Below, one piece after another: positions 3,197 through 25,346 of a DNA stretch of 35,072 nt. Under the pieces are notes generated by a model. That model was not told where the DNA came from. It saw nothing but the letters and a program-made list of their open reading frames with translations, and made no database searches. The stretch's first letter is position 1. Each line of letters starts with the position of its first letter. The translations under genes were made by a program, and so were the position numbers. The stretch is from Clostridioides phage Hain-Saunders-2022a, in sequence record CP103806.1; one strand, given 5' to 3'.

Positions 3197-3555
3197 TTAG
3201 CCTCACCCCCTACAAATTTAGCGATTGTTTTAATAATGTTTTTTCCATTATCAGCCCAAGAACGAGGTATCCATTGTTTACCCCTTAGCCCCCCTCTGGA
3301 TGTCCCTTGCTTTCCAAACCCCTTGCTTTTATAGTACTGTACTTTTGCATGTGGGGACTTATATACTATCTCATCAGCCTTTGTAATCACATTATTCTTT
3401 AACATCCCAGTATCAAACGGTACATATTGGTCTGATGTTCTTCTTATTTCATTTGTAAATAACTTTTGTGCATCCCCATTTTTATTTAGATGTCTTTTTA
3501 AGAGAATTTTATCGGGGTTATCAATGTTTATTTTTATTTCAGAACTGTTACTCAT
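3193..3555 (-). CDS. neck protein (HK97 gp10-like / minor capsid)
   Basis: ORF 3193..3576. The likely start is ATG at 3555 (MSNSSEIK..), preceded by GGGGGGA and overlapping the upstream stop as ATGA. Confidence 0.5.
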   Translation of the reverse strand: MSNSSEIKINIDNPDKILLKRHLNKNGDAQKLFTNEIRRTSDQYVPFDTGMLKNNVITKADEIVYKSPHAKVQYYKSKGFGKQGTSRGGLRGKQWIPRSWADNGKNIIKTIAKFVGGEAK

Positions 3556-18712: not shown

Positions 18713-19075
18713 ATGAAAAAAACATGTACTAGAATAAAGCAGTTAAGAGAATCTGAGGGAATGAGTCAAATACAATTCGGAGAAGCACTCGGAATGACTA
18801 GAGATACGGTATCAAACTTAGAAAATGGAAGAACTAAGATAAAGGAAAGTGATTTGAAATTAATAATTTCTACTTTTAAAGTAAGCGAGAGCTGGTTAAG
18901 GACTGGTGAAGGCGAAATGTTCGATATTTCAAATAAAAACACTATAAAGGCAGAAGCTTTTTGCGCAATAGACGAAAATGAAAAACTAGCCAAGGCTGTA
19001 TTGGAATTTAGCAAATTAACAGACGAGCAACTCGAATCAATTTTGAAAATTTTAGAAGTATTTTCTAAAGAATAA
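18713..19075 (+). CDS. XRE-family HTH repressor (CI-like, no peptidase domain)
   Basis: N-terminal HTH (IKQLRESEGMSQIQFGEALGMTRDTVSNLENGRTKI). It is divergent from the early operon. Confidence 0.85.
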   Translation: MKKTCTRIKQLRESEGMSQIQFGEALGMTRDTVSNLENGRTKIKESDLKLIISTFKVSESWLRTGEGEMFDISNKNTIKAEAFCAIDENEKLAKAVLEFSKLTDEQLESILKILEVFSKE

Positions 19076-20087: not shown

Positions 20088-22325
20088 TTAAATACAGATT
20101 TCTAATTGTTCTGTTGACTCTGCTTCTTTTTCTTTTTCAATTTTAAATCCTATATCAAATTTATTGTTTAAAAATGCTTTTTCAATTTCATCTAATCGGT
20201 TTAACAACTTTTGTTTTCTTGTGCTTATAGCATTTCTTAAACTTAAATCATTTTTTTCCAATTTTAAATCCTTTTCTATATCCTCTATTTTTATATATCT
20301 TTCAATCTTGTTTATTCGCATCCTGTCATTGTCTATAAATTCAATATCGGGCTTATTGTTCTTGTAATATGAATAATTTTCTAACGCTTCAAAGTTTCTG
20401 TGTTGCTTGACTTTCACTACAAATATATTTTTTAAGATAGTTCCTAGTTTAGTGGTTGTTAACTTCCAATCATCTCCTAGAATTATACCTAAATCGTTAC
20501 TTAACTCTTGTAAATTGCATTCTGTATAAGCTGTTCCAACACCAAATAATTTGTCTATGTAGTTATATGCAACAACTTCTATTAAGTTATCATTTAGCAA
20601 ATTTGGATGTTCTTCTTTTAACTCTCTGTAGATGAGATTATTTATTTTATTAAATATATTACCTCTCTTATTGTTGCCCATGTTGGCAAGTTTCCAGGAT
20701 AACCCTAAACTATAGTTATGTTCAAGTACATATTTAGAAAATAGTTCAATTTCGTTGTAACAGTCCGCTTTGTCGATTAAATAATCTATATTATACTTAA
20801 TGTGTGCCTGCTTATAATCGTCCTCTGTTATTTTATTATAATTCATATAGGTCATTAGGTTAAAATCCTTAGAACCCCTTTTAATTTGCTCGTAGCCAAC
20901 TAGATATTTTTTGTTTTCTTCTAAAGTTTTTAATGTAGCTTTCTTAATTTCTTTTAAAACTTCTTTGTATTCTTTTATTTGCTGTGTTGTTTCTTGACTT
21001 TGTTCCTCTATATTTTCTATTTTTACATCTTTGAAATATTCTTCTAAAAGCACTTTTAAGCTTGCGATACTTCTACTATCGTAATATCTCGAGTATGTGT
21101 TACTTATAATGAATAATTTATCTATTTCATAGCATTTATTTTTAATAGAGTAATATACATTAGAGTCAAGGCTGAAAGGCATAAGGTCTATTCCGACTGT
21201 TTCAAATCCCGTTACCCTTTTGCTGTTTAATTCGTTATATAACTCTTTTAATTTGTTTGCTCTTTTAAAATTGATTTTAATTATGTCATTAACTTTGTAG
21301 ACTTTATTGTTTCCTTCTGTTTCTTTGAAATTGTTAAAAATATGCACTCTCACACGTTTCAAATCTCTAAATCTTGCAACATACTGTTTTATTGTCGCAG
21401 GGTCTTTGAACCCAACTATCACAATATCAGTTATGTCTTTATTTTTTATATTGACACCTGCCAGAATTGTTGTTGTATTTAGTAGTACTTCATATTCTTT
21501 CATGTCTGAGTGTTGTATTATTCTTTTGTACAATTCGCTTTTAATCTTAATATCTGCATGAACAATATCACTTTTTTTTGTTGTTAATTCATCTATATAT
21601 TTTAAATCTTTTTTACTGTTATAAAGAACAGCGCTATTTTTAGATTTGTTAAGAATTTCTATTATTTTATCTTTATTTATATTGTCATAAAGCCTTACAT
21701 CATATTTAGTATTTTTTTCTTTTATATACTCTATTATGTAATCATAAATTTCAAATTCCAGCTTAGTTGGTGTTGCTGTTATATCTATTCTGCCTTTACA
21801 TTTATTTACTACATTGTTGAGATTTTTTATTGCTTTTTTCCTATAAGAATCTGTGTAGGTCTGATGTATTTCATCAACAACAATTATGTAATCACTTAAA
21901 TCTATGTTTAATAATTGTTCTGTTTTATCCCATGTCATGACTGCTAGGTTTCCAGTTTTTAATGCTTTTGTCGCAGGAAGTAAGTCATATGCACCTGGTA
22001 CATCATATTCCTTCATAGCCTGTTCTACATTCGCACTGTTTGGCAATATAAATAATGCTTTTGTATTCATTTTTTTAAGCGCATTTATGAAACTATAACT
22101 TTTACCTGTTCCAGTTTCTGCAATTAACAGAACCGTCTCTCCTGCTCCTGCTCTTGCTATTGCGTTATATATTCCACTCTTTTTTTCATCTATATATTTT
22201 TTTATTTTATGCGTTTCTTGTCTTTCAAATTTTGCGTAATTTTCTATCTCTCCTAGCGCTCTTTCTAAGTCGCAATCATTTTCAAATAATTTATCTATAT
22301 TATTTTTCTTAACTTTTTCCATCAT
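20088..22325 (-). CDS. SF2 helicase (DEAD/DEAH-like ATPase core, ~350 aa) fused to a ~400-aa K/N/Y-rich C-terminal domain of unknown function
   Basis: Walker A (AETGTGKS), DEIH box (VVDEIH) and a motif-VI-like QYVARFRD. RBS AAGGGGGA. It stands alone between the repeat array and the accessory island. Confidence 0.85.
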   Translation of the reverse strand: MMEKVKKNNIDKLFENDCDLERALGEIENYAKFERQETHKIKKYIDEKKSGIYNAIARAGAGETVLLIAETGTGKSYSFINALKKMNTKALFILPNSANVEQAMKEYDVPGAYDLLPATKALKTGNLAVMTWDKTEQLLNIDLSDYIIVVDEIHQTYTDSYRKKAIKNLNNVVNKCKGRIDITATPTKLEFEIYDYIIEYIKEKNTKYDVRLYDNINKDKIIEILNKSKNSAVLYNSKKDLKYIDELTTKKSDIVHADIKIKSELYKRIIQHSDMKEYEVLLNTTTILAGVNIKNKDITDIVIVGFKDPATIKQYVARFRDLKRVRVHIFNNFKETEGNNKVYKVNDIIKINFKRANKLKELYNELNSKRVTGFETVGIDLMPFSLDSNVYYSIKNKCYEIDKLFIISNTYSRYYDSRSIASLKVLLEEYFKDVKIENIEEQSQETTQQIKEYKEVLKEIKKATLKTLEENKKYLVGYEQIKRGSKDFNLMTYMNYNKITEDDYKQAHIKYNIDYLIDKADCYNEIELFSKYVLEHNYSLGLSWKLANMGNNKRGNIFNKINNLIYRELKEEHPNLLNDNLIEVVAYNYIDKLFGVGTAYTECNLQELSNDLGIILGDDWKLTTTKLGTILKNIFVVKVKQHRNFEALENYSYYKNNKPDIEFIDNDRMRINKIERYIKIEDIEKDLKLEKNDLSLRNAISTRKQKLLNRLDEIEKAFLNNKFDIGFKIEKEKEAESTEQLEICI

Positions 22326-22410
22326 TAAATCCCCCTTATATTGCAGGGAAAATTAAAACTTATTTTCTGTTTTTTAGTATAATTTTACTATTAAAAATAC
22401 ACTAAAAAAC

Positions 22411-22439
22411 TTGATTTCTATTGCCTTATACTCTATAAT
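22411..22439 (+). promoter_or_regulatory. near-consensus sigma-A promoter TTGATT-N17-TATAAT
   Basis: TTGATT at 22411-22416, an exact 17-nt spacer, TATAAT at 22434-22439. It is divergent from the helicase gene start. Confidence 0.6.
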
Positions 22440-22446
22440 AAGAATA

Positions 22447-22557
22447 TAGGAATAAGAAAATAAGGATATTTGCGTATCCTAAAATAAGGGTCTAATTTCC
22501 CTGGGTTCGAGGAATACTATTGTTTGACGGCAAGTGAGTATTCCTCTTTTATTTTTT
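22447..22557 (+). ncRNA. candidate ~110-nt small RNA with no ORF, two hairpins and an intrinsic terminator
   Basis: It runs from the promoter above to the terminator stem GAGGAATACT (22510-22519) / AGTATTCCTC (22537-22546) followed by TTTTATTTTTTT. There is an internal hairpin AGGATAtttgcgTATCCT. No start codon gives an ORF longer than 8 codons. Confidence 0.35.
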
Positions 22558-22691
22558 TGTATATTTAAAAATCCAATTAAAAACATTCTTTTTTATGATT
22601 ATAATTATAGCACATTTAAATTATAAAAAAATATACTCTTTTTGAAAATAAATTATATTTTAAAAATATATTTTCTAAAAAACTGTATTTT

Positions 22692-22724
22692 AAAAGACTT
22701 AGTACACTTACTAAGTCTTTTTTA
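22692..22724. terminator. bidirectional terminator (AAAAGACTTAGTA cact TACTAAGTCTTTT)
   Basis: Perfect 13-bp stem with A and T runs on both sides. Confidence 0.65.
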
Positions 22725-22839
22725 TATGTAAATATATGTTATAATAATTTTAGCAAGAGAAGCAATCTATATTCAAAAAAGAGTGGAGTCTATACACGAA
22801 AGATTATCCTCCCAACGCTACGAGGGGAGGTGATGTGAT

Positions 22840-22998
22840 ATGGATAATTTTTTACTTAATGTATTAGCTGGTGTTATAGCTAGTTTAATATTCTATCTAA
22901 TTAGTAAATTATTTAGAAACGTAAAAAACCACTCTAAGTGTCCAGCAAAGAGTGGTTGGGAACTTAATCTAAAAATTAAGTTCAAAAAGTCTAGATAA
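22840..22998 (+). CDS. 52-aa membrane peptide, type-I toxin-like (MDNFLLNVLAGVIASLIFYLISKLFRNVKNHSKCPAKSGWELNLKIKFKKSR)
   Basis: Unlisted ORF with a strong RBS (GAGGGGAGGTGA). The RBS is embedded in a hairpin (CCTCCC at 22808-22813 pairs with GGGAGG at 22824-22830). There is an extended -10 TGtTATAAT at about 22740-22748. The protein has an N-terminal TM helix and a Lys-rich tail. Confidence 0.6.
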   Translation: MDNFLLNVLAGVIASLIFYLISKLFRNVKNHSKCPAKSGWELNLKIKFKKSR

Positions 22999-23402: not shown

Positions 23403-23531
23403 ATGAGTAGACTAGAAAGAAAGCAAAAAAATAGAGAGAAAAGACTCAGCAAAGTTAAAATCATTCTCTCTATTCTGAGTATTTTAGTAAGCTTGATAGA
23501 TAGACTTATCAAACTACTAAAAGACTTGTAA
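23403..23531 (+). CDS. 42-aa peptide (MSRLERKQKNREKRLSKVKIILSILSILVSLIDRLIKLLKDL) with a basic N-terminus and a hydrophobic or amphipathic C-terminus
   Basis: Unlisted ORF with its own promoter: TTGTTT (23344-23349), a 17-nt spacer, TATAAT (23367-23372). It has a strong RBS (AAAGGAGGTGA) and a downstream hairpin (CTAAGAAGGAA/TTCCTTCTTAG at 23540-23567). Confidence 0.5.
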   Translation: MSRLERKQKNREKRLSKVKIILSILSILVSLIDRLIKLLKDL

Positions 23532-23608
23532 GTTTTAAGCTAAGAAGGAAGTGCAATTCCTTCTTAGTTGACTTCTTTCTTAAATTATAACACATTTTCT
23601 TGAAATGT

Positions 23609-23776
23609 ATGAGTAAAAAAGTATATAAAACATGCGTTGCTGTAATTATTTTTACAATAGTTTTAGACGTAATTCTTTTAGTAAAAGATTTTAGTATAAG
23701 TAATATAGCTGGATTGCTTATAAGTTTTTTACTACTAACATTTTTTTATTGGCAACGTAAAAAAGGTGAGTGGTAG
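23609..23776 (+). CDS. 55-aa two-helix membrane peptide (MSKKVYKTCVAVIIFTIVLDVILLVKDFSISNIAGLLISFLLLTFFYWQRKKGEW)
   Basis: Unlisted ORF that ends at the start of the AbrB-like gene. No clear RBS. Confidence 0.3.
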   Translation: MSKKVYKTCVAVIIFTIVLDVILLVKDFSISNIAGLLISFLLLTFFYWQRKKGEW

Positions 23777-23778
23777 TT

Positions 23779-23958
23779 TTGAAAGAAACAAGGATTTTGA
23801 ATATTAATTTTAACAAAAGCGGTTGTGGCTCTGTAAGTACCAGGCTGAATATACCTATTAAATTTTTACGAGAACTAGGCATAACCGAAAGCGACAGGAG
23901 TGTCGAAGTGACTTTAAATGGCGAGGAAATAATAATTAAAAAGGCTAAGAATAAATAA
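23779..23958 (+). CDS. AbrB/MazE/SpoVT-family swapped-hairpin DNA-binding protein
   Basis: RLNIPIKFLRELGITESDRSVEVTLNGEEIIIKKAK closely parallels the AbrB N-domain (RVVIPIELRRTLGIAEKDALEIYVDDEKIILKKYK). The start is probably TTG at 23779, 9 nt after AGGTGAG. The ORF track begins at the GTG at 23770. Confidence 0.75.
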   Translation: MKETRILNINFNKSGCGSVSTRLNIPIKFLRELGITESDRSVEVTLNGEEIIIKKAKNK

Positions 23959-24206: not shown

Positions 24207-25016
24207 ATGGCTGATACAAAATTAATTGTATTTTTCAATACAAAAGGCGGGATATATAAGACGACTACAACTATTATGACGGCATACGAACTTGCAAAAG
24301 ATAAAGATAAAAAAATTCTTCTTTGGGACTTAGATCAACAGGCAAATTTAACTCAATATGTTTATAAAACTAATCACGATAAAAAGACTACATTAGATAT
24401 GTTAAAAGACGTTAGGGCTGAGGAAATTATTATTAAATCTTTTAATAAATCTTACCCAAATATAGATTTAATAGCTTCCGACATTTTGATGGCTAAATTT
24501 GAAAGAGAATTATTTTCTTTCCCAGCTCGTGAACAATTTTTGGCTCGCTGGTATATGAATAATTTTGATGTATTAAGTGAATATGATTATATATTTTGCG
24601 ACTTATCTCCTAAATATGATTTGACGGCTATGAATGCTTTATTTTTAGCTGATAGTGTAGTTATTTTAATTAAAGATAAAAATGTTTCTAGCTTAAGAGG
24701 GGCAGATTATTTTAAGCAACTTTGGGATATAGATAGAAGTTATTTTAAAAAAGAGGATAATATAAAAGCAACAGTTTTAGTCGGCTTCGAAAAGAAAAGA
24801 ACGGCGGTTAGCAACACATTTGATTCTTACTTAAAAGAGTTTAATGTTTTAAGGAATATGATGTTAAATACATATATAAGAAAAAATGAGTTTATTGAGC
24901 AAGCATTAATGAAAAAATTATCTTTAACAGATTATACAAAAATAACTAAAGAGCATTTTAGTAGACAAGAGTTTACTAGCATGTTAGAAGAATTAAAAGA
25001 AAGAGGTGTGTTATAG
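24207..25016 (+). CDS. parA: ParA/Soj-family partition ATPase (deviant Walker A)
   Basis: KGGIYKTTTT deviant Walker A near the N-terminus. 269 aa. RBS AATGAGGTG. Confidence 0.9.
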   Translation: MADTKLIVFFNTKGGIYKTTTTIMTAYELAKDKDKKILLWDLDQQANLTQYVYKTNHDKKTTLDMLKDVRAEEIIIKSFNKSYPNIDLIASDILMAKFERELFSFPAREQFLARWYMNNFDVLSEYDYIFCDLSPKYDLTAMNALFLADSVVILIKDKNVSSLRGADYFKQLWDIDRSYFKKEDNIKATVLVGFEKKRTAVSNTFDSYLKEFNVLRNMMLNTYIRKNEFIEQALMKKLSLTDYTKITKEHFSRQEFTSMLEELKERGVL

Positions 25017-25346
25017 ATGCCAGTATTCAACAAAGACCTTTTAGAAGAAAAAGAAAAGCCACTTTTGAAAAGTGGTACAGTTGGGCAGGAAAATATTATT
25101 TCTACGGATAGCGATAAAACATTAAGTATATATAATCTAGTTAATAAGAAAAGTAAAAAAGTAACTATGAGTGCAACACTAGACAAAGAGCTTGTAGACA
25201 AGTTGAAGTCTCTTGCAATAGACTTAGATAGTGATGTAAGTAAAATATTAAGTGATATGTTAACAAAGCTTTTATATGATGTAGATGTAAAAGAAGAAAA
25301 TTTAATCGCTTATAATGAAAGAAGAAAGACAAAGAATAATAAGTGA
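25017..25346 (+). CDS. small ribbon-helix-helix centromere-binding protein (ParG/ParB-like partner of ParA)
   Basis: 109-aa ORF that starts at the parA stop codon. The C-terminal RHH-like segment is KKVTMSATLDKELVDKLKSLAIDLDSDVSKILSDMLTKLL. Confidence 0.65.
   Translation: MPVFNKDLLEEKEKPLLKSGTVGQENIISTDSDKTLSIYNLVNKKSKKVTMSATLDKELVDKLKSLAIDLDSDVSKILSDMLTKLLYDVDVKEENLIAYNERRKTKNNK

Follow-up and report, generated by a model that had tools for sequence, protein, structure and literature searches.

The window, by which we mean the whole 35,072-nt stretch of Clostridioides phage Hain-Saunders-2022a DNA (CP103806.1) analysed here, comes from a C. difficile phage-plasmid of the phiCD38-2 / phiMMP04 / phiCD506 group. 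Its minus strand carries the gene for an SF2 helicase, with start codons at 22325 and 22322, and upstream of this gene the plus strand carries a predicted non-coding RNA gene (Table 1). The helicase is about 50% identical to CDP07, the helicase of pCD630, and experiments have shown the helicase module of the pCD630/pCD-WTSI family to function as a replicon (bioRxiv 10.1101/2022.07.10.499461). By analogy with that family, the helicase may act as the replication initiator of the phage-plasmid.

Table 1. Features of the helicase gene and its upstream region (positions in the window)
Feature	Position	Strand	Description and basis
SF2 DEAD/ResIII helicase, 745 aa; putative replication protein and proposed regulatory target	20088..22325	-	Pfam ResIII, DEAD; phrog_5173
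Helicase translation-initiation hairpin	22330..22370	-	anti-SD segment 22343-22370 (ACAGAAAAUAAGUUUUAAUUUUCCCUGC) pairs with SD AAGGGGGA (22337->22330); predicted fold
Inferred helicase mRNA leader, ~270 nt	22326..22597	-	promoter positions; antisense through the whole small RNA gene
Predicted non-coding RNA gene, promoter to U-run	22411-22558	+	TTGATT-17-TATAAT, three hairpins, terminator, no ORF
Putative small RNA promoter	22411-22416 (-35), 22434-22439 (-10)	+	TTGATT, 17-nt spacer, TATAAT; promoter scan
Predicted ~110-nt non-coding RNA	22447..22558	+	A-rich 5' tail, hairpins 1 to 3, U-run; fold, covariance model, no ORF
Hairpin 1	22463-22480	+	AGGATA-TTTGCG-TATCCT; read from sequence
Proposed pre-emptor (activator) element	22477..22504	-	CCAGGGAAAUUAGACCCUUAUUUUAGGA; antisense of hairpin 2, complementary to anti-SD segment
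Hairpin 2	22487-22502	+	AGGG-TCTAATTT-CCCT
Hairpin 3, intrinsic terminator	22509..22558	+	10-bp stem, arms GAGGAATACT (22509-22518) and AGTATTCCTC (22537-22546); 18-nt loop; U-run TTTTATTTTTTT (22547-22558)
Loop motif of hairpin 3	22520..22532	+	TTGTTTGACGGCA; same in 15 of 15 distinct copies; contains YUNR-type UUUG/UUGA
Putative helicase promoter	22598..22627	-	extended -10 TGTGCTATAAT (22614->22604), overlaps TTTATA-18-TATAAT (22627->22598)

A predicted RNA gene and the putative promoter of the helicase gene

An earlier note on this DNA had described a compact promoter-to-terminator unit for an RNA of about 110 nt without an ORF, and its elements were all found again: the near-consensus promoter, the internal hairpin (hairpin 1 in Table 1), and the canonical terminator with its 10-bp stem and U-run. 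Transcription is predicted to start at about 22446-22447, and the predicted transcript contains no AUG and no plus-strand ORF of at least 25 aa. Folding of a 115-nt RNA gave -32.9 kcal/mol, compared with -21.4 +/- 3.1 kcal/mol for shuffled sequences (z = -3.7), and none of 200 shuffles was as good. Hairpin 2, which that note did not list, is nearly a copy of the anti-SD segment of the helicase mRNA itself. The consensus terminator scan overlooked hairpin 3, because its 18-nt loop exceeds the limit of 8 in that scan. Since no U-run follows the stem on the minus strand, hairpin 3 should terminate transcription on the plus strand only. The minus-strand complement of hairpin 1 is followed by a U-rich run (UAUUUUCUUAUU), and one may speculate that the two form a weak attenuator in the helicase leader. 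A GGTTCGA-like stretch occurs at 22504-22510; a tRNA, tmRNA, or attachment-site reading of GGGTTCGAGG was rejected, with ARAGORN finding no genes in the window.

The putative promoter of the helicase gene was located directly beyond the RNA terminator, where the extended -10 element is a perfect match. The predicted start site lies at about 22590-22597. Every homologous region checked has the corresponding plus-strand motif ATTATA[G/T]CACA, which reads TGTG[C/A]TATAAT on the strand of the helicase, and scans recovered the helicase-strand promoter in the window, phiCD38-2, and phiMMP04. In phiCD08011, the plus-strand TATAAT is degraded and the minus-strand TATAAT is retained. In AT-rich DNA, an extended -10 that lacks a -35 amounts to no more than a match to the consensus. 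Scans of the window, phiCD38-2, and phiMMP04 found neither a sigma-70-like minus-strand promoter nor a terminator in the interval from the RNA gene to the helicase ATG. Transcription of the helicase gene most likely begins from the extended -10 at 22604-22614 on the minus strand. Because this is the only conserved sigma-A-type helicase promoter, lying past the RNA terminator with none in between, the helicase mRNA probably has a leader of about 270 nt, read through into the helicase gene and antisense across the entire RNA gene. The unit had been taken as an independent one, divergent from the helicase gene; this description has to be revised, as the two promoters are most likely convergent. 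We rejected a 35-aa minus-strand ORF across the terminator (22479-22586), whose start lies in an indel-rich spacer and whose frame and start are lost in phiCD38-2, and no conserved leader peptide was found in this locus.

Conservation of the RNA gene in phage-plasmids and plasmids

One copy of the RNA adjoins the helicase gene in each phiCD38-2/phiMMP04/phiCD506-like C. difficile phage-plasmid examined, with a single covariance-model match of 98-134 bits per element. The TTG and TATAAT of the small RNA promoter are unchanged in 11 homologues, and the -35 of the phiCD38-2 type is a weaker TTGTGT or TTGTAT. In a structure-aware alignment of 15 distinct copies, itself fitted to the structure model, 98% of cells were paired and 6 pairs (22 cells) had changed on both sides; this was equalled by none of 500 shuffles, and slid controls reached at most 5 cells. 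Plain MAFFT alignment likewise showed the terminator stem to be 100% paired, with 4 compensatory pairs. Hairpin 2 has two such pairs (AGGG..CCCU versus GAGG..CCUC). Elements of the phiCD38-2 type and of the phiMMP04 type differ in hairpin 2 and in the stem of hairpin 3. The core of hairpin 1 (GGATA/TATCC) and the A-run upstream of it are invariant, and a 3-nt indel in its loop distinguishes the types. Indels are frequent in the neighbouring spacer (about 22560-22597), whereas the RNA unit is kept. Beyond the spacer, 3' of the RNA unit on the same strand, an AT-rich block (22598-22690) with long imperfect inverted repeats is extremely conserved. A search of species-representative genomes matched C. 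difficile only, and all close homologues belong to this one host species.

No Rfam family reached its gathering score in the window. The match to RF00242 (ctRNA_pT181) is at chance level (23.7 bits, E = 1, gathering threshold 56), which does not place the RNA in that family, and it does not recur in the homologous regions of phiCD38-2 or pCD630. Other weak matches to known families, such as the psbA 3'UTR, were rejected along with it, having E values of at least 0.6 and being missing from homologues. We found no description of a small RNA on phiCD38-2-like phages or pCD630 in the literature, and none in the tables that supplement the 2013 C. difficile sRNA survey. Given a promoter, a terminator, and a structure that are conserved and show covariation, and with the RNA falling into no Rfam family, this is very probably a genuine ORF-less small RNA gene, as the earlier note had proposed, and we are highly confident that the RNA is real and expressed.

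More distant relatives were found in pCD630 and in the metagenomic loci L167-L170, whose helicases are only 44-50% identical, with the same architecture upstream of the helicase gene. On the helicase strand, TGATATAAT or TGATACAAT occupies the place equivalent to the putative helicase promoter, and just inside it lies a convergent promoter-to-terminator unit of about 105 nt (about 103 nt in L169). In pCD630, an upstream ORF on the same strand terminates just before the helicase-strand promoter. There (NC_008226.2), the predicted RNA of about 105 nt lies at about 3296-3400 on the plus strand, and TGATATAAT at 3418-3410 on the helicase strand. The stem in pCD630, read from the sequence, tolerates a U.G pair on the small RNA strand only. 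An SD-sequestering hairpin is predicted in all five relatives, and the loop motif of hairpin 3 recurs in them as well. This 12-14-mer is inverted there, lying on the helicase strand in pCD630, L167, L168, and L170 and appearing as TTGTTTGGCGAC in L169. YUNR loops of antisense pairs are found in either partner (PMC4485353). The invariance of the loop sequence itself is unexplained by cis-antisense pairing. When IMG/VR was searched for the pattern of the loop motif, the matches beyond true homologues were mostly unrelated coding DNA. Several of these matches correspond to an LFDG(I)GG segment, which we take to be a C5-cytosine-methyltransferase motif.

A possible antisense switch in the helicase leader

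On the basis of the promoter positions, the RNA is likely to be cis-antisense to the helicase leader. We see about an even chance that, lying there, it also throttles helicase production in the manner of plasmid copy-number RNAs. A specific switch that acts by sequestering the SD is a more tentative idea, to which we give somewhat less than even odds.

The hairpin that would sequester the SD is kept with covariation, reading UUCCCU..AGGGGG here, CCUCCA..UGGAGG in the phiCD38-2 type, and GCCCCU..GGGGG in pCD630. Because most variants of this hairpin have no U-run after it, translational control is likelier than transcription attenuation. The anti-SD segment has a second potential partner in the pre-emptor. 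The duplex between the two was calculated at -19.1 kcal/mol, against a background of -10.8 +/- 3.0 kcal/mol, and none of 298 background windows was as good. The same pairing is available in five other elements, where 0-3% of background windows were as good, and the six elements span -19 to -28 kcal/mol. In pCD630 and L169 the duplex is not above background, as 20% and 12.5% of background windows, respectively, did as well. An inverted repeat of 23 nt (22344-22366 with 22481-22503, 78% complementary) supports the pairing in the window. Hairpin 2 and the SD hairpin switch type together, from GGG/CCC to GAGG/CCUCC; essentially two lineages plus pCD630 lie behind this co-change.

Folding of the free leaders pointed in the same direction for about half of them. 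In unconstrained minimum-free-energy (MFE) structures, the anti-SD segment pairs with the region antisense to the small RNA in 8 of 15 leaders, pCD630 included. When the antisense region was blocked, the SD became enclosed in the local hairpin in all 15, and the probability of its being unpaired dropped, for example to 0.01 in both the window (from 0.26) and phiCD38-2 (from 0.48). In the leader of the window itself, the conformer with the pre-emptor paired to the anti-SD segment lies 7.4 kcal/mol above the MFE.

These predictions can be assembled into the following scheme. The leader would be fully complementary to the small RNA, which would make the latter a countertranscript (ctRNA). In the free leader, the pre-emptor (22504->22477) would pair with the anti-SD segment (22370->22343), so that the helicase SD stays available. 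Binding of the small RNA in vivo, probably beginning at the conserved hairpin-3 loop with its YUNR-type motif, would occupy the pre-emptor; the anti-SD segment would then fold back on the SD, and helicase translation would drop. RNA dosage would increase with the copy number of the element and exert negative feedback on replication, and the small RNA would probably also be an incompatibility determinant.

An RNA that stands alone and acts in trans, with the invariant loop or the C-rich arm of hairpin 2 pairing to host or phage mRNAs, would make the adjacency of the helicase gene incidental, unless the helicase SD itself were a target in trans. Invariance of a 13-nt loop on top of a co-varying stem does suggest a seed that matches something besides its own antisense. 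The 5' tail, rich in A (AGGAAUAAGAAAAUAAGG), looks similar to Hfq-type ARN/AG repeats, and a pairing of about 9 bp is possible between the 3' arm of hairpin 2 (AAUUUCCCU) and the SD region (AGGGGGAUU). However, we found no complement of the loop within 3 mismatches elsewhere in the whole 35-kb window, and in a duplex scan of both strands the only outlier was the RNA's own antisense (top non-self duplex -39.6 against a mean of -20.2 and sd of 5.6, 4670 windows). Direct pairing of the small RNA with the helicase translation-initiation region does not stand out from the background, of which 17-46% of windows were as good. The suggestion of the earlier note that the helicase 5' UTR is the target is thus probably right by way of cis-antisense pairing, but direct pairing at the RBS region stays at the genomic background. 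Moreover, a fixed trans seed would not tolerate the move of the loop motif to the opposite strand in pCD630-type relatives, and we regard action in trans as unlikely. That same presence in both orientations, beside helicases that have diverged so far, is what would be expected of a double-stranded DNA site. The inverted repeat of hairpin 3 with its loop could then be a protein-binding or cruciform site (an origin, a site of helicase/primase loading, or an operator), and the promoter and terminator would look secondary or coincidental. It sits in the replicon control region next to the conserved AT-rich block with inverted repeats, and nearby cis elements must be needed for replication, since a pCD630-family fragment with the helicase gene alone did not replicate (bioRxiv 10.1101/2022.07.10.499461). 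A DNA site leaves unexplained why TTG-17-TATAAT is conserved at a fixed distance of about 110 nt from a U-run terminator, and it accounts neither for the covariation of hairpin 2 nor for the U.G pair tolerated only on the small RNA strand of the pCD630 stem. Unlike usual iterons or operators, the loop motif is not repeated. Repeated operator or iteron copies of two other conserved motifs (22607-22626 and 22383-22396) were sought and were absent or at chance level. A DNA element in place of an RNA has a slim chance of being correct, and as an additional role it could coexist with the RNA explanation.

A promoter followed by about 110 structured nucleotides and a terminator is also the classic layout of a riboswitch or attenuator, and a second conserved block comes next on the same strand. 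The RNA could accordingly be a plus-strand cis leader controlling read-through to the next gene, which here is a type I toxin (22840-22998, plus strand; 82% identical to its homologue gp33 of phiCD38-2) starting 280 nt downstream of the RNA, and in phiMMP04-type elements is a 3'-5' exonuclease. Yet the downstream gene varies between toxin, exonuclease, and none while the unit remains on the helicase side; the toxin gene is set apart from the unit by a second strong terminator (22692-22721) and by a promoter block of its own; and we found no alternative antiterminator overlapping the terminator stem. The Rfam search, in which the earlier note had seen a way to expose a riboswitch or leader, yielded no family claiming the RNA as either, and a cis leader appears very improbable. 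Scarcely credible is the notion that the unit has no function, its promoter-like site and hairpins having arisen by chance in AT-rich intergenic DNA and been conserved only through close kinship. Promoter-like hexamers are indeed common in this AT-rich DNA (40 found in 4 kb, 26.5 +/- 5.7 expected), so that hexamer matches by themselves are uninformative as evidence for a promoter here, and the close homologues all come from one host species. Against it stand the compensatory changes in two helices, the retention of the unit next to an indel-rich spacer, and an architecture preserved in pCD630-type elements despite diverged primary sequence. The reading that we prefer is an RNA that is cis-antisense to the helicase leader.

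Implications and relation to known antisense RNAs

Plasmids and plasmid-prophages of the phiCD38-2, phiMMP04, and pCD630 families are common in C. difficile, and phiCD38-2 alters toxin and surface-protein expression. Very little is known of how their replication is controlled, and the authors who defined the pCD630 family identified no candidate gene for incompatibility or copy control there. If the helicase leader does harbour a conserved antisense RNA, this would be that missing regulator and could help to explain which elements can coexist. It would also offer a handle for curing or stabilising such elements and for the design of new vectors for C. difficile, and would give Rfam-type resources an unannotated family. 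As the mechanism is of a well-known class, it would come as a moderate conceptual surprise. A bolder proposal, which we think rather improbable, is that the RNA and its antisense leader make up the missing copy-number and incompatibility determinant of a helicase replicon common to pCD630-type plasmids and phiCD38-2/phiMMP04-type phage-plasmids, with the loop doubling as a site read by a protein (helicase/primase or host factor) or as a DNA origin hairpin. In that case, one short locus would couple replication initiation, control of Rep translation, and phage-plasmid incompatibility (superinfection exclusion between related phages).

As judged from its sequence, the RNA is an unannotated, putative member of the plasmid ctRNA class. 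It has the predicted character of an untranslated RNA with its own promoter and intrinsic terminator, and its stem-loops include a YUNR-type recognition loop, in the sense that the motif is present. The C. difficile type I antitoxin RNAs of prophages (RCd family) are likewise small RNAs on C. difficile mobile elements, and they are convergent with the toxin mRNA and overlap it (PMC7699646). An antitoxin role toward the adjacent toxin was rejected, as the RNA lies upstream on the strand of the toxin with two terminators between them, and the RNA unit stays with the helicase in elements without the toxin.

The loop here, which reads UUUGACGG, may resemble the recognition loops with a YUNR-type U-turn in the Inc RNA/RNAI of IncI-alpha/IncB plasmids and CopA of R1. 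The hexanucleotide UUGGCG is conserved in Inc RNA and CopA-type loops, and the relative L169 contains it. In those systems, rep translation depends on a long-range activating interaction that the antisense RNA prevents, as the predicted folds would suggest for the helicase leader. They differ in belonging to Gram-negative plasmids, with leader-peptide coupling and a pseudoknot activator, and a conserved leader peptide is absent here. The scheme proposed for the present locus would share with the pT181 ctRNA (RF00242) and pIP501 RNAIII systems a countertranscript against the rep leader, a pre-emptor logic, and convergent rep and antisense promoters. In pT181, an upstream leader segment competes as pre-emptor for the 5' arm of the RBS-containing hairpin (PMC5703833). 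Both of these systems work by attenuation, which is less likely than translational control at the locus here, where the SD hairpin is mostly devoid of a U-run.

RNAI of pSK41-type staphylococcal RepA_N plasmids has no sequence or Rfam relationship to the RNA described here. It is about 83 nt long with two hairpins, compared with about 110 nt and three hairpins here, and its target is a RepA_N protein rather than an SF2 helicase-type replication protein; the host element here is a phage-plasmid. It is a small countertranscribed RNA with stem-loops and a 5' tail, as is predicted for the RNA here. Binding of pSK41 RNAI has been proposed to induce an RBS-sequestering stem-loop rather than transcription termination (PMC5703833), and the RBS sequestration predicted for the helicase leader would be alike.

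The predicted small RNA gene and its conservation

The earlier note had proposed, from the sequence alone, a promoter, an internal hairpin and a terminator enclosing a ~110-nt RNA free of ORFs, divergent from the helicase gene. All three elements were found in the window, together with a further hairpin (hairpin 2). The predicted transcript has no AUG and contains no same-strand ORF of at least 25 aa, and its fold (-32.9 kcal/mol; z = -3.7) was equalled by 0 of 200 shuffles. Because promoter-like hexamers alone mean little here (40 observed against 26.5 expected per 4 kb), the case for the small RNA rests on comparative evidence. The Rfam search suggested in the note returned no family at gathering score in the window; membership of ctRNA_pT181, the highest-scoring family below that threshold, was excluded by score (23.7 bits, E = 1, chance level), and this match was absent in the homologues. 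ARAGORN found no tRNA in the window.

Features of the small RNA gene, the candidate helicase promoter and the neighbouring genes (window positions)
Feature	Position	Strand	Remarks
sRNA promoter	22411-22439	+	TTGATT (22411-22416), 17-nt spacer, TATAAT (22434-22439)
Hairpin 1	22463-22480	+	AGGATA/TATCCT
Hairpin 2	22487-22502	+	AGGG-TCTAATTT-CCCT
Terminator stem and U-run	22509-22558	+	GAGGAATACT (22509-22518) with AGTATTCCTC (22537-22546), then TTTTATTTTTTT (22547-22558)
Extended -10 TGTGCTATAAT	22614->22604	-	just past sRNA terminator
TTTATA-18-TATAAT	22627->22598	-	overlaps extended -10
SF2 helicase	20088-22325	-	ResIII and DEAD domains; phrog_5173 match
CI-like repressor	18713-19075	+	
ParA and ribbon-helix-helix partition pair	24207-25346		
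Endolysin			near the RNA gene
Type I toxin homologue, 52-aa ORF	22840-22998	+	82% identity to phiCD38-2 gp33
Small-ORF cluster	23403-23958	+	3' of toxin
42-aa and 58-aa membrane-type peptides	within 23403-23958	+	phrog_11497
62-aa AbrB/MazE-like protein	within 23403-23958	+	PF04014, weak
Strong terminator	23538-23569		inside small-ORF cluster region

BLAST with 22330-22840 matched 39 phage and 42 plasmid records, all from Clostridium/Clostridioides difficile, including phiCD38-2, phiCD111, phiCD146, phiMMP04, phiCD506, phiCD481-1, phiCDHM11/13/14 and JD032. These, like the window, belong to the extrachromosomal "phage-plasmids" of C. difficile, with siphoviruses (Leicestervirus) and small myoviruses (Sherbrookevirus) among them. 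Eleven homologous intergenic regions aligned well, and a covariance model trained on 13 distinct copies of the sRNA found exactly one copy per element, always adjoining the helicase gene, at 98-134 bits. The copies fall into two main sequence types: hairpin 2 reads AGGG..CCCU in the type of the window and GAGG..CCUC in that of phiCD38-2. Most copies have the terminator stem GAGGAAUACU, phiCD38-2 has AAGGAACAUG/CAUGUUCCUU and two others have GAGGAAUACA/UGUAUUCCUC; the stem was 100% paired in a MAFFT alignment, with both sides changed in 4 pairs. In the model-fitted alignment, which leans towards structure, 98% of cells were paired and 6 pairs (22 cells) were compensatory, a result matched by 0 of 500 shuffles, with slid controls giving at most 5 cells. 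The hairpin-3 loop TTGTTTGACGGCA (22520-22532) is invariant while the stem below it varies.

The nearby 52-aa ORF has a hydrophobic N-terminus and a lysine-rich tail, and its homologue phiCD38-2 gp33 is described as a type I toxin (PMC7699646). A role of the small RNA as its antitoxin was rejected: C. difficile type I antitoxins are convergent with their toxins (PMC7699646), unlike the small RNA here, and the RNA stays with the helicase in phiMMP04-type elements, where a gene for a DnaQ-like 3'-5' exonuclease takes the toxin's place after the control region. A convergent antitoxin RNA for this ORF would be expected on the minus strand. The block with the toxin promoter and 5' UTR (about 22724-22835) recurs in a separate set of C. 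difficile elements, both plasmids and phages, such as phiCD6356, phiCDHM19 and 45-kb plasmids. The small ORFs at 23403-23958 may be further toxin-antitoxin or maintenance genes.

Candidate helicase promoter and probable antisense leader

A scan of the helicase strand from the sRNA gene to the ATG (22326-22410) found no sigma-70-like site in the window, phiCD38-2 or phiMMP04. Past the sRNA terminator lies a candidate extended -10 promoter; TRTGnTATAAT is the textbook Gram-positive form. Every homologous region checked carries its plus-strand counterpart ATTATA[G/T]CACA, and in phiCD08011 the plus-strand TATAAT of the palindrome is degraded while the minus-strand TATAAT is retained. An indel-rich spacer of ~40 nt separates this promoter from the sRNA terminator. 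Read on the minus strand, the sRNA terminator has no U-run, and no minus-strand terminator was detected ahead of the helicase gene. On the simplest reading, the helicase mRNA would start near 22590-22597, and its ~270-nt leader would be exactly antisense to the small RNA. The earlier note had called the unit divergent from the helicase gene; the sole conserved candidate helicase promoter was found past the sRNA terminator, so the two promoters would be convergent. From sequence, conservation and predicted pairing we infer the two transcription starts, the read-through, in vivo pairing and an effect on helicase level or copy number.

Two further sequence blocks flank these elements. The AT-rich block 22598-22721, in which AATTATAGCACATTTAAATTATAAAAAAATATACT is nearly invariant, is more strictly conserved than the sRNA gene; within it lie the palindrome TATAATTATA and an imperfect inverted repeat of 27 nt (22628-22654 with 22665-22691), and it ends in a 13-bp bidirectional terminator (22692-22721). 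It could contain an upstream or operator region of the helicase promoter, or the replication origin; no further copies of the block were found in the rest of the window. Between the sRNA -35 and the helicase anti-SD segment lies I3, a 19-nt, 89% inverted repeat (22369-22410) with the invariant core AATTTTACTATTAAAA, which could fold into a long AU hairpin within the leader or serve as a DNA operator; its matches elsewhere in the window were at chance level.

Predicted pairing at the helicase ribosome-binding site

Folding places the SD of the helicase (AAGGGGGA, 22337->22330) inside a hairpin with an anti-SD, UUUUCCCUG, upstream. This hairpin is maintained with covariation: elements of the phiCD38-2 type have CCUCCA..UGGAGG, pCD630 has GCCCCU..GGGGG. 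A repeat finder detected I2, a 23-nt, 78% inverted repeat joining 22344-22366 with 22481-22503. In the mRNA, the anti-SD segment AAAAUAAGUUUUAAUUUUCCCUG nearly repeats the sRNA hairpin-2 segment, AAAAUAAGGGUCUAAUUUCCCUG, and therefore the antisense of hairpin 2, found in the long leader only, is complementary to the anti-SD segment. For the duplex of these two leader segments RNAduplex calculated -19.1 kcal/mol (window) and values of -19.4 to -28.3 (five other elements); the same two segments were used in all six, and only 0-3% of 298 same-genome background windows equalled it. Direct pairing of the sRNA with the helicase TIR, one form of the helicase 5' UTR check suggested in the earlier note, stayed at background level (17-46% of windows as good).

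The unconstrained MFE structure pairs the anti-SD with the antisense-of-sRNA region in 8 of 15 leaders, phiCD38-2 and pCD630 included, with the SD outside the local hairpin. When the sRNA-complementary region was blocked, mimicking bound RNA, the SD lay in the local hairpin in all 15. Mean SD unpaired probabilities of 0.26 (window), 0.48 (phiCD38-2) and 0.71 (phiCD08011) all dropped to 0.01 under this constraint. The "open" conformer of the window leader lies 7.4 kcal/mol above the MFE, so that an SD switch is only a possibility for this variant. In the proposed mechanism, the antisense of hairpin 2 would pair with the anti-SD segment in the free leader and keep the SD outside the local hairpin, and binding of the sRNA would close the SD within it. 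Because the SD hairpin of most variants has no trailing U-run, we favour translational control over attenuation.

Distant relatives, the conserved loop and known systems

Helicase relatives were found at 44-59% identity, among them those of the metagenomic loci L167-L170 and of L048, a locus that is 100% identical to plasmid pCD630 of strain 630 (NC_008226.2). CDP07, the pCD630 helicase, has at its N-terminus an additional CHC2 primase zinc finger; the phage-plasmid helicases are without this ~130-aa region (window 20088-22325, minus strand, versus L048 1778-4387) and have in common with CDP07, at about 50% identity, an SF2 core and a long C-terminal domain of unknown function. Upstream of these five helicase genes the primary sequence has diverged and the architecture is retained: an extended -10, TGATATAAT or TGATACAAT, on the helicase strand directly outside a convergent promoter-to-terminator unit (~105 nt in pCD630, ~103 nt in L169), and an SD-sequestering hairpin. 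The unit promoters are TTTACA-17-TATAAT, but TTGCCT-17-TATAGT in L169. In pCD630, leader UUUAAGGGUUAAUCAU has 15-nt near-perfect complementarity with anti-SD segment UUGAUUAGCCCCUAAU, at a duplex energy not above background (20% as good). A helicase-strand ORF ends just ahead of the pCD630 extended -10 promoter, so read-through towards the helicase is likely there as well.

The predicted ~105-nt RNA, antisense to the CDP07 leader at about 3296-3400 (plus strand) of pCD630, is missing from the PLSDB feature table, where RNA genes are not listed, and no mention of it was found in the papers examined. The leader/sRNA regions of L167 and L170 (about 1900-2000) and L168 (about 1930-2010) contain 4-5 tandem TAGGRGYTAATCAC-like units of ~13-15 nt. 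On the helicase strand these resemble an SD (AGGAG or AGGGG), on the sRNA strand an anti-SD (CUCCU or CCCCU); a further, inverted copy is the anti-SD segment of the helicase, UUGAUUAGCCCCUAAC. These units could be multiple pre-emptors, which compete for the anti-SD, or iterons.

The terminator-hairpin loop contains the same TTGTTTGACGGC in pCD630, L167, L168 and L170, and TTGTTTGGCGAC in L169. The orientation in these relatives is opposite to that in the window group, with the motif on the strand of the helicase; the loop has apparently flipped between the stem arms. IMG/VR matches to the loop outside the family (L012, L013, L017, L026, L036 and others) were attributed to chance, the 13-14-mer TTGTTTGACGGCA lying mostly inside coding DNA. 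Such coding matches, translated as ..LFDGIGG.., which we take to be motif I of C5-cytosine methyltransferases, contaminate loop pattern searches. Since cis-antisense partners are complementary whatever their sequence, the invariance of the loop needs another cause. Its YUNR tetranucleotides (UUUG and UUGA; UUGG in L169) suggest a recognition loop, a role that would tolerate inversion, YUNR being a U-turn motif found in either partner of antisense pairs (PMC4485353). Alternatively, the loop may be a site for a protein or a double-stranded DNA (origin) site. No complement of the loop was found elsewhere in the window, and a duplex scan of the window gave no outlier trans target of the sRNA.

No prior description of the small RNA was found in the literature on phiCD38-2-like phages, JD032 transcriptomics, C. 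difficile type I TA systems or pCD630-like plasmids, or in the 2013 sRNA survey. In the pCD630 family the helicase module is a functional replicon and the helicase gene alone is not (bioRxiv 10.1101/2022.07.10.499461); no incompatibility candidate is apparent in the pCD630 papers. The logic proposed here matches the countertranscript copy-control RNAs of Gram-positive plasmids, notably pSK41 RNAI (~83 nt), whose target in the leader lies ~100 nt before the TIR and which is proposed to induce an RBS-sequestering hairpin, and the "pre-emptor" of pT181, which competes for the 5' arm of the ribosome-binding-site hairpin (PMC5703833). The small RNA is thus best called a previously unannotated, putative member of a kind already known, the plasmid countertranscript RNA.
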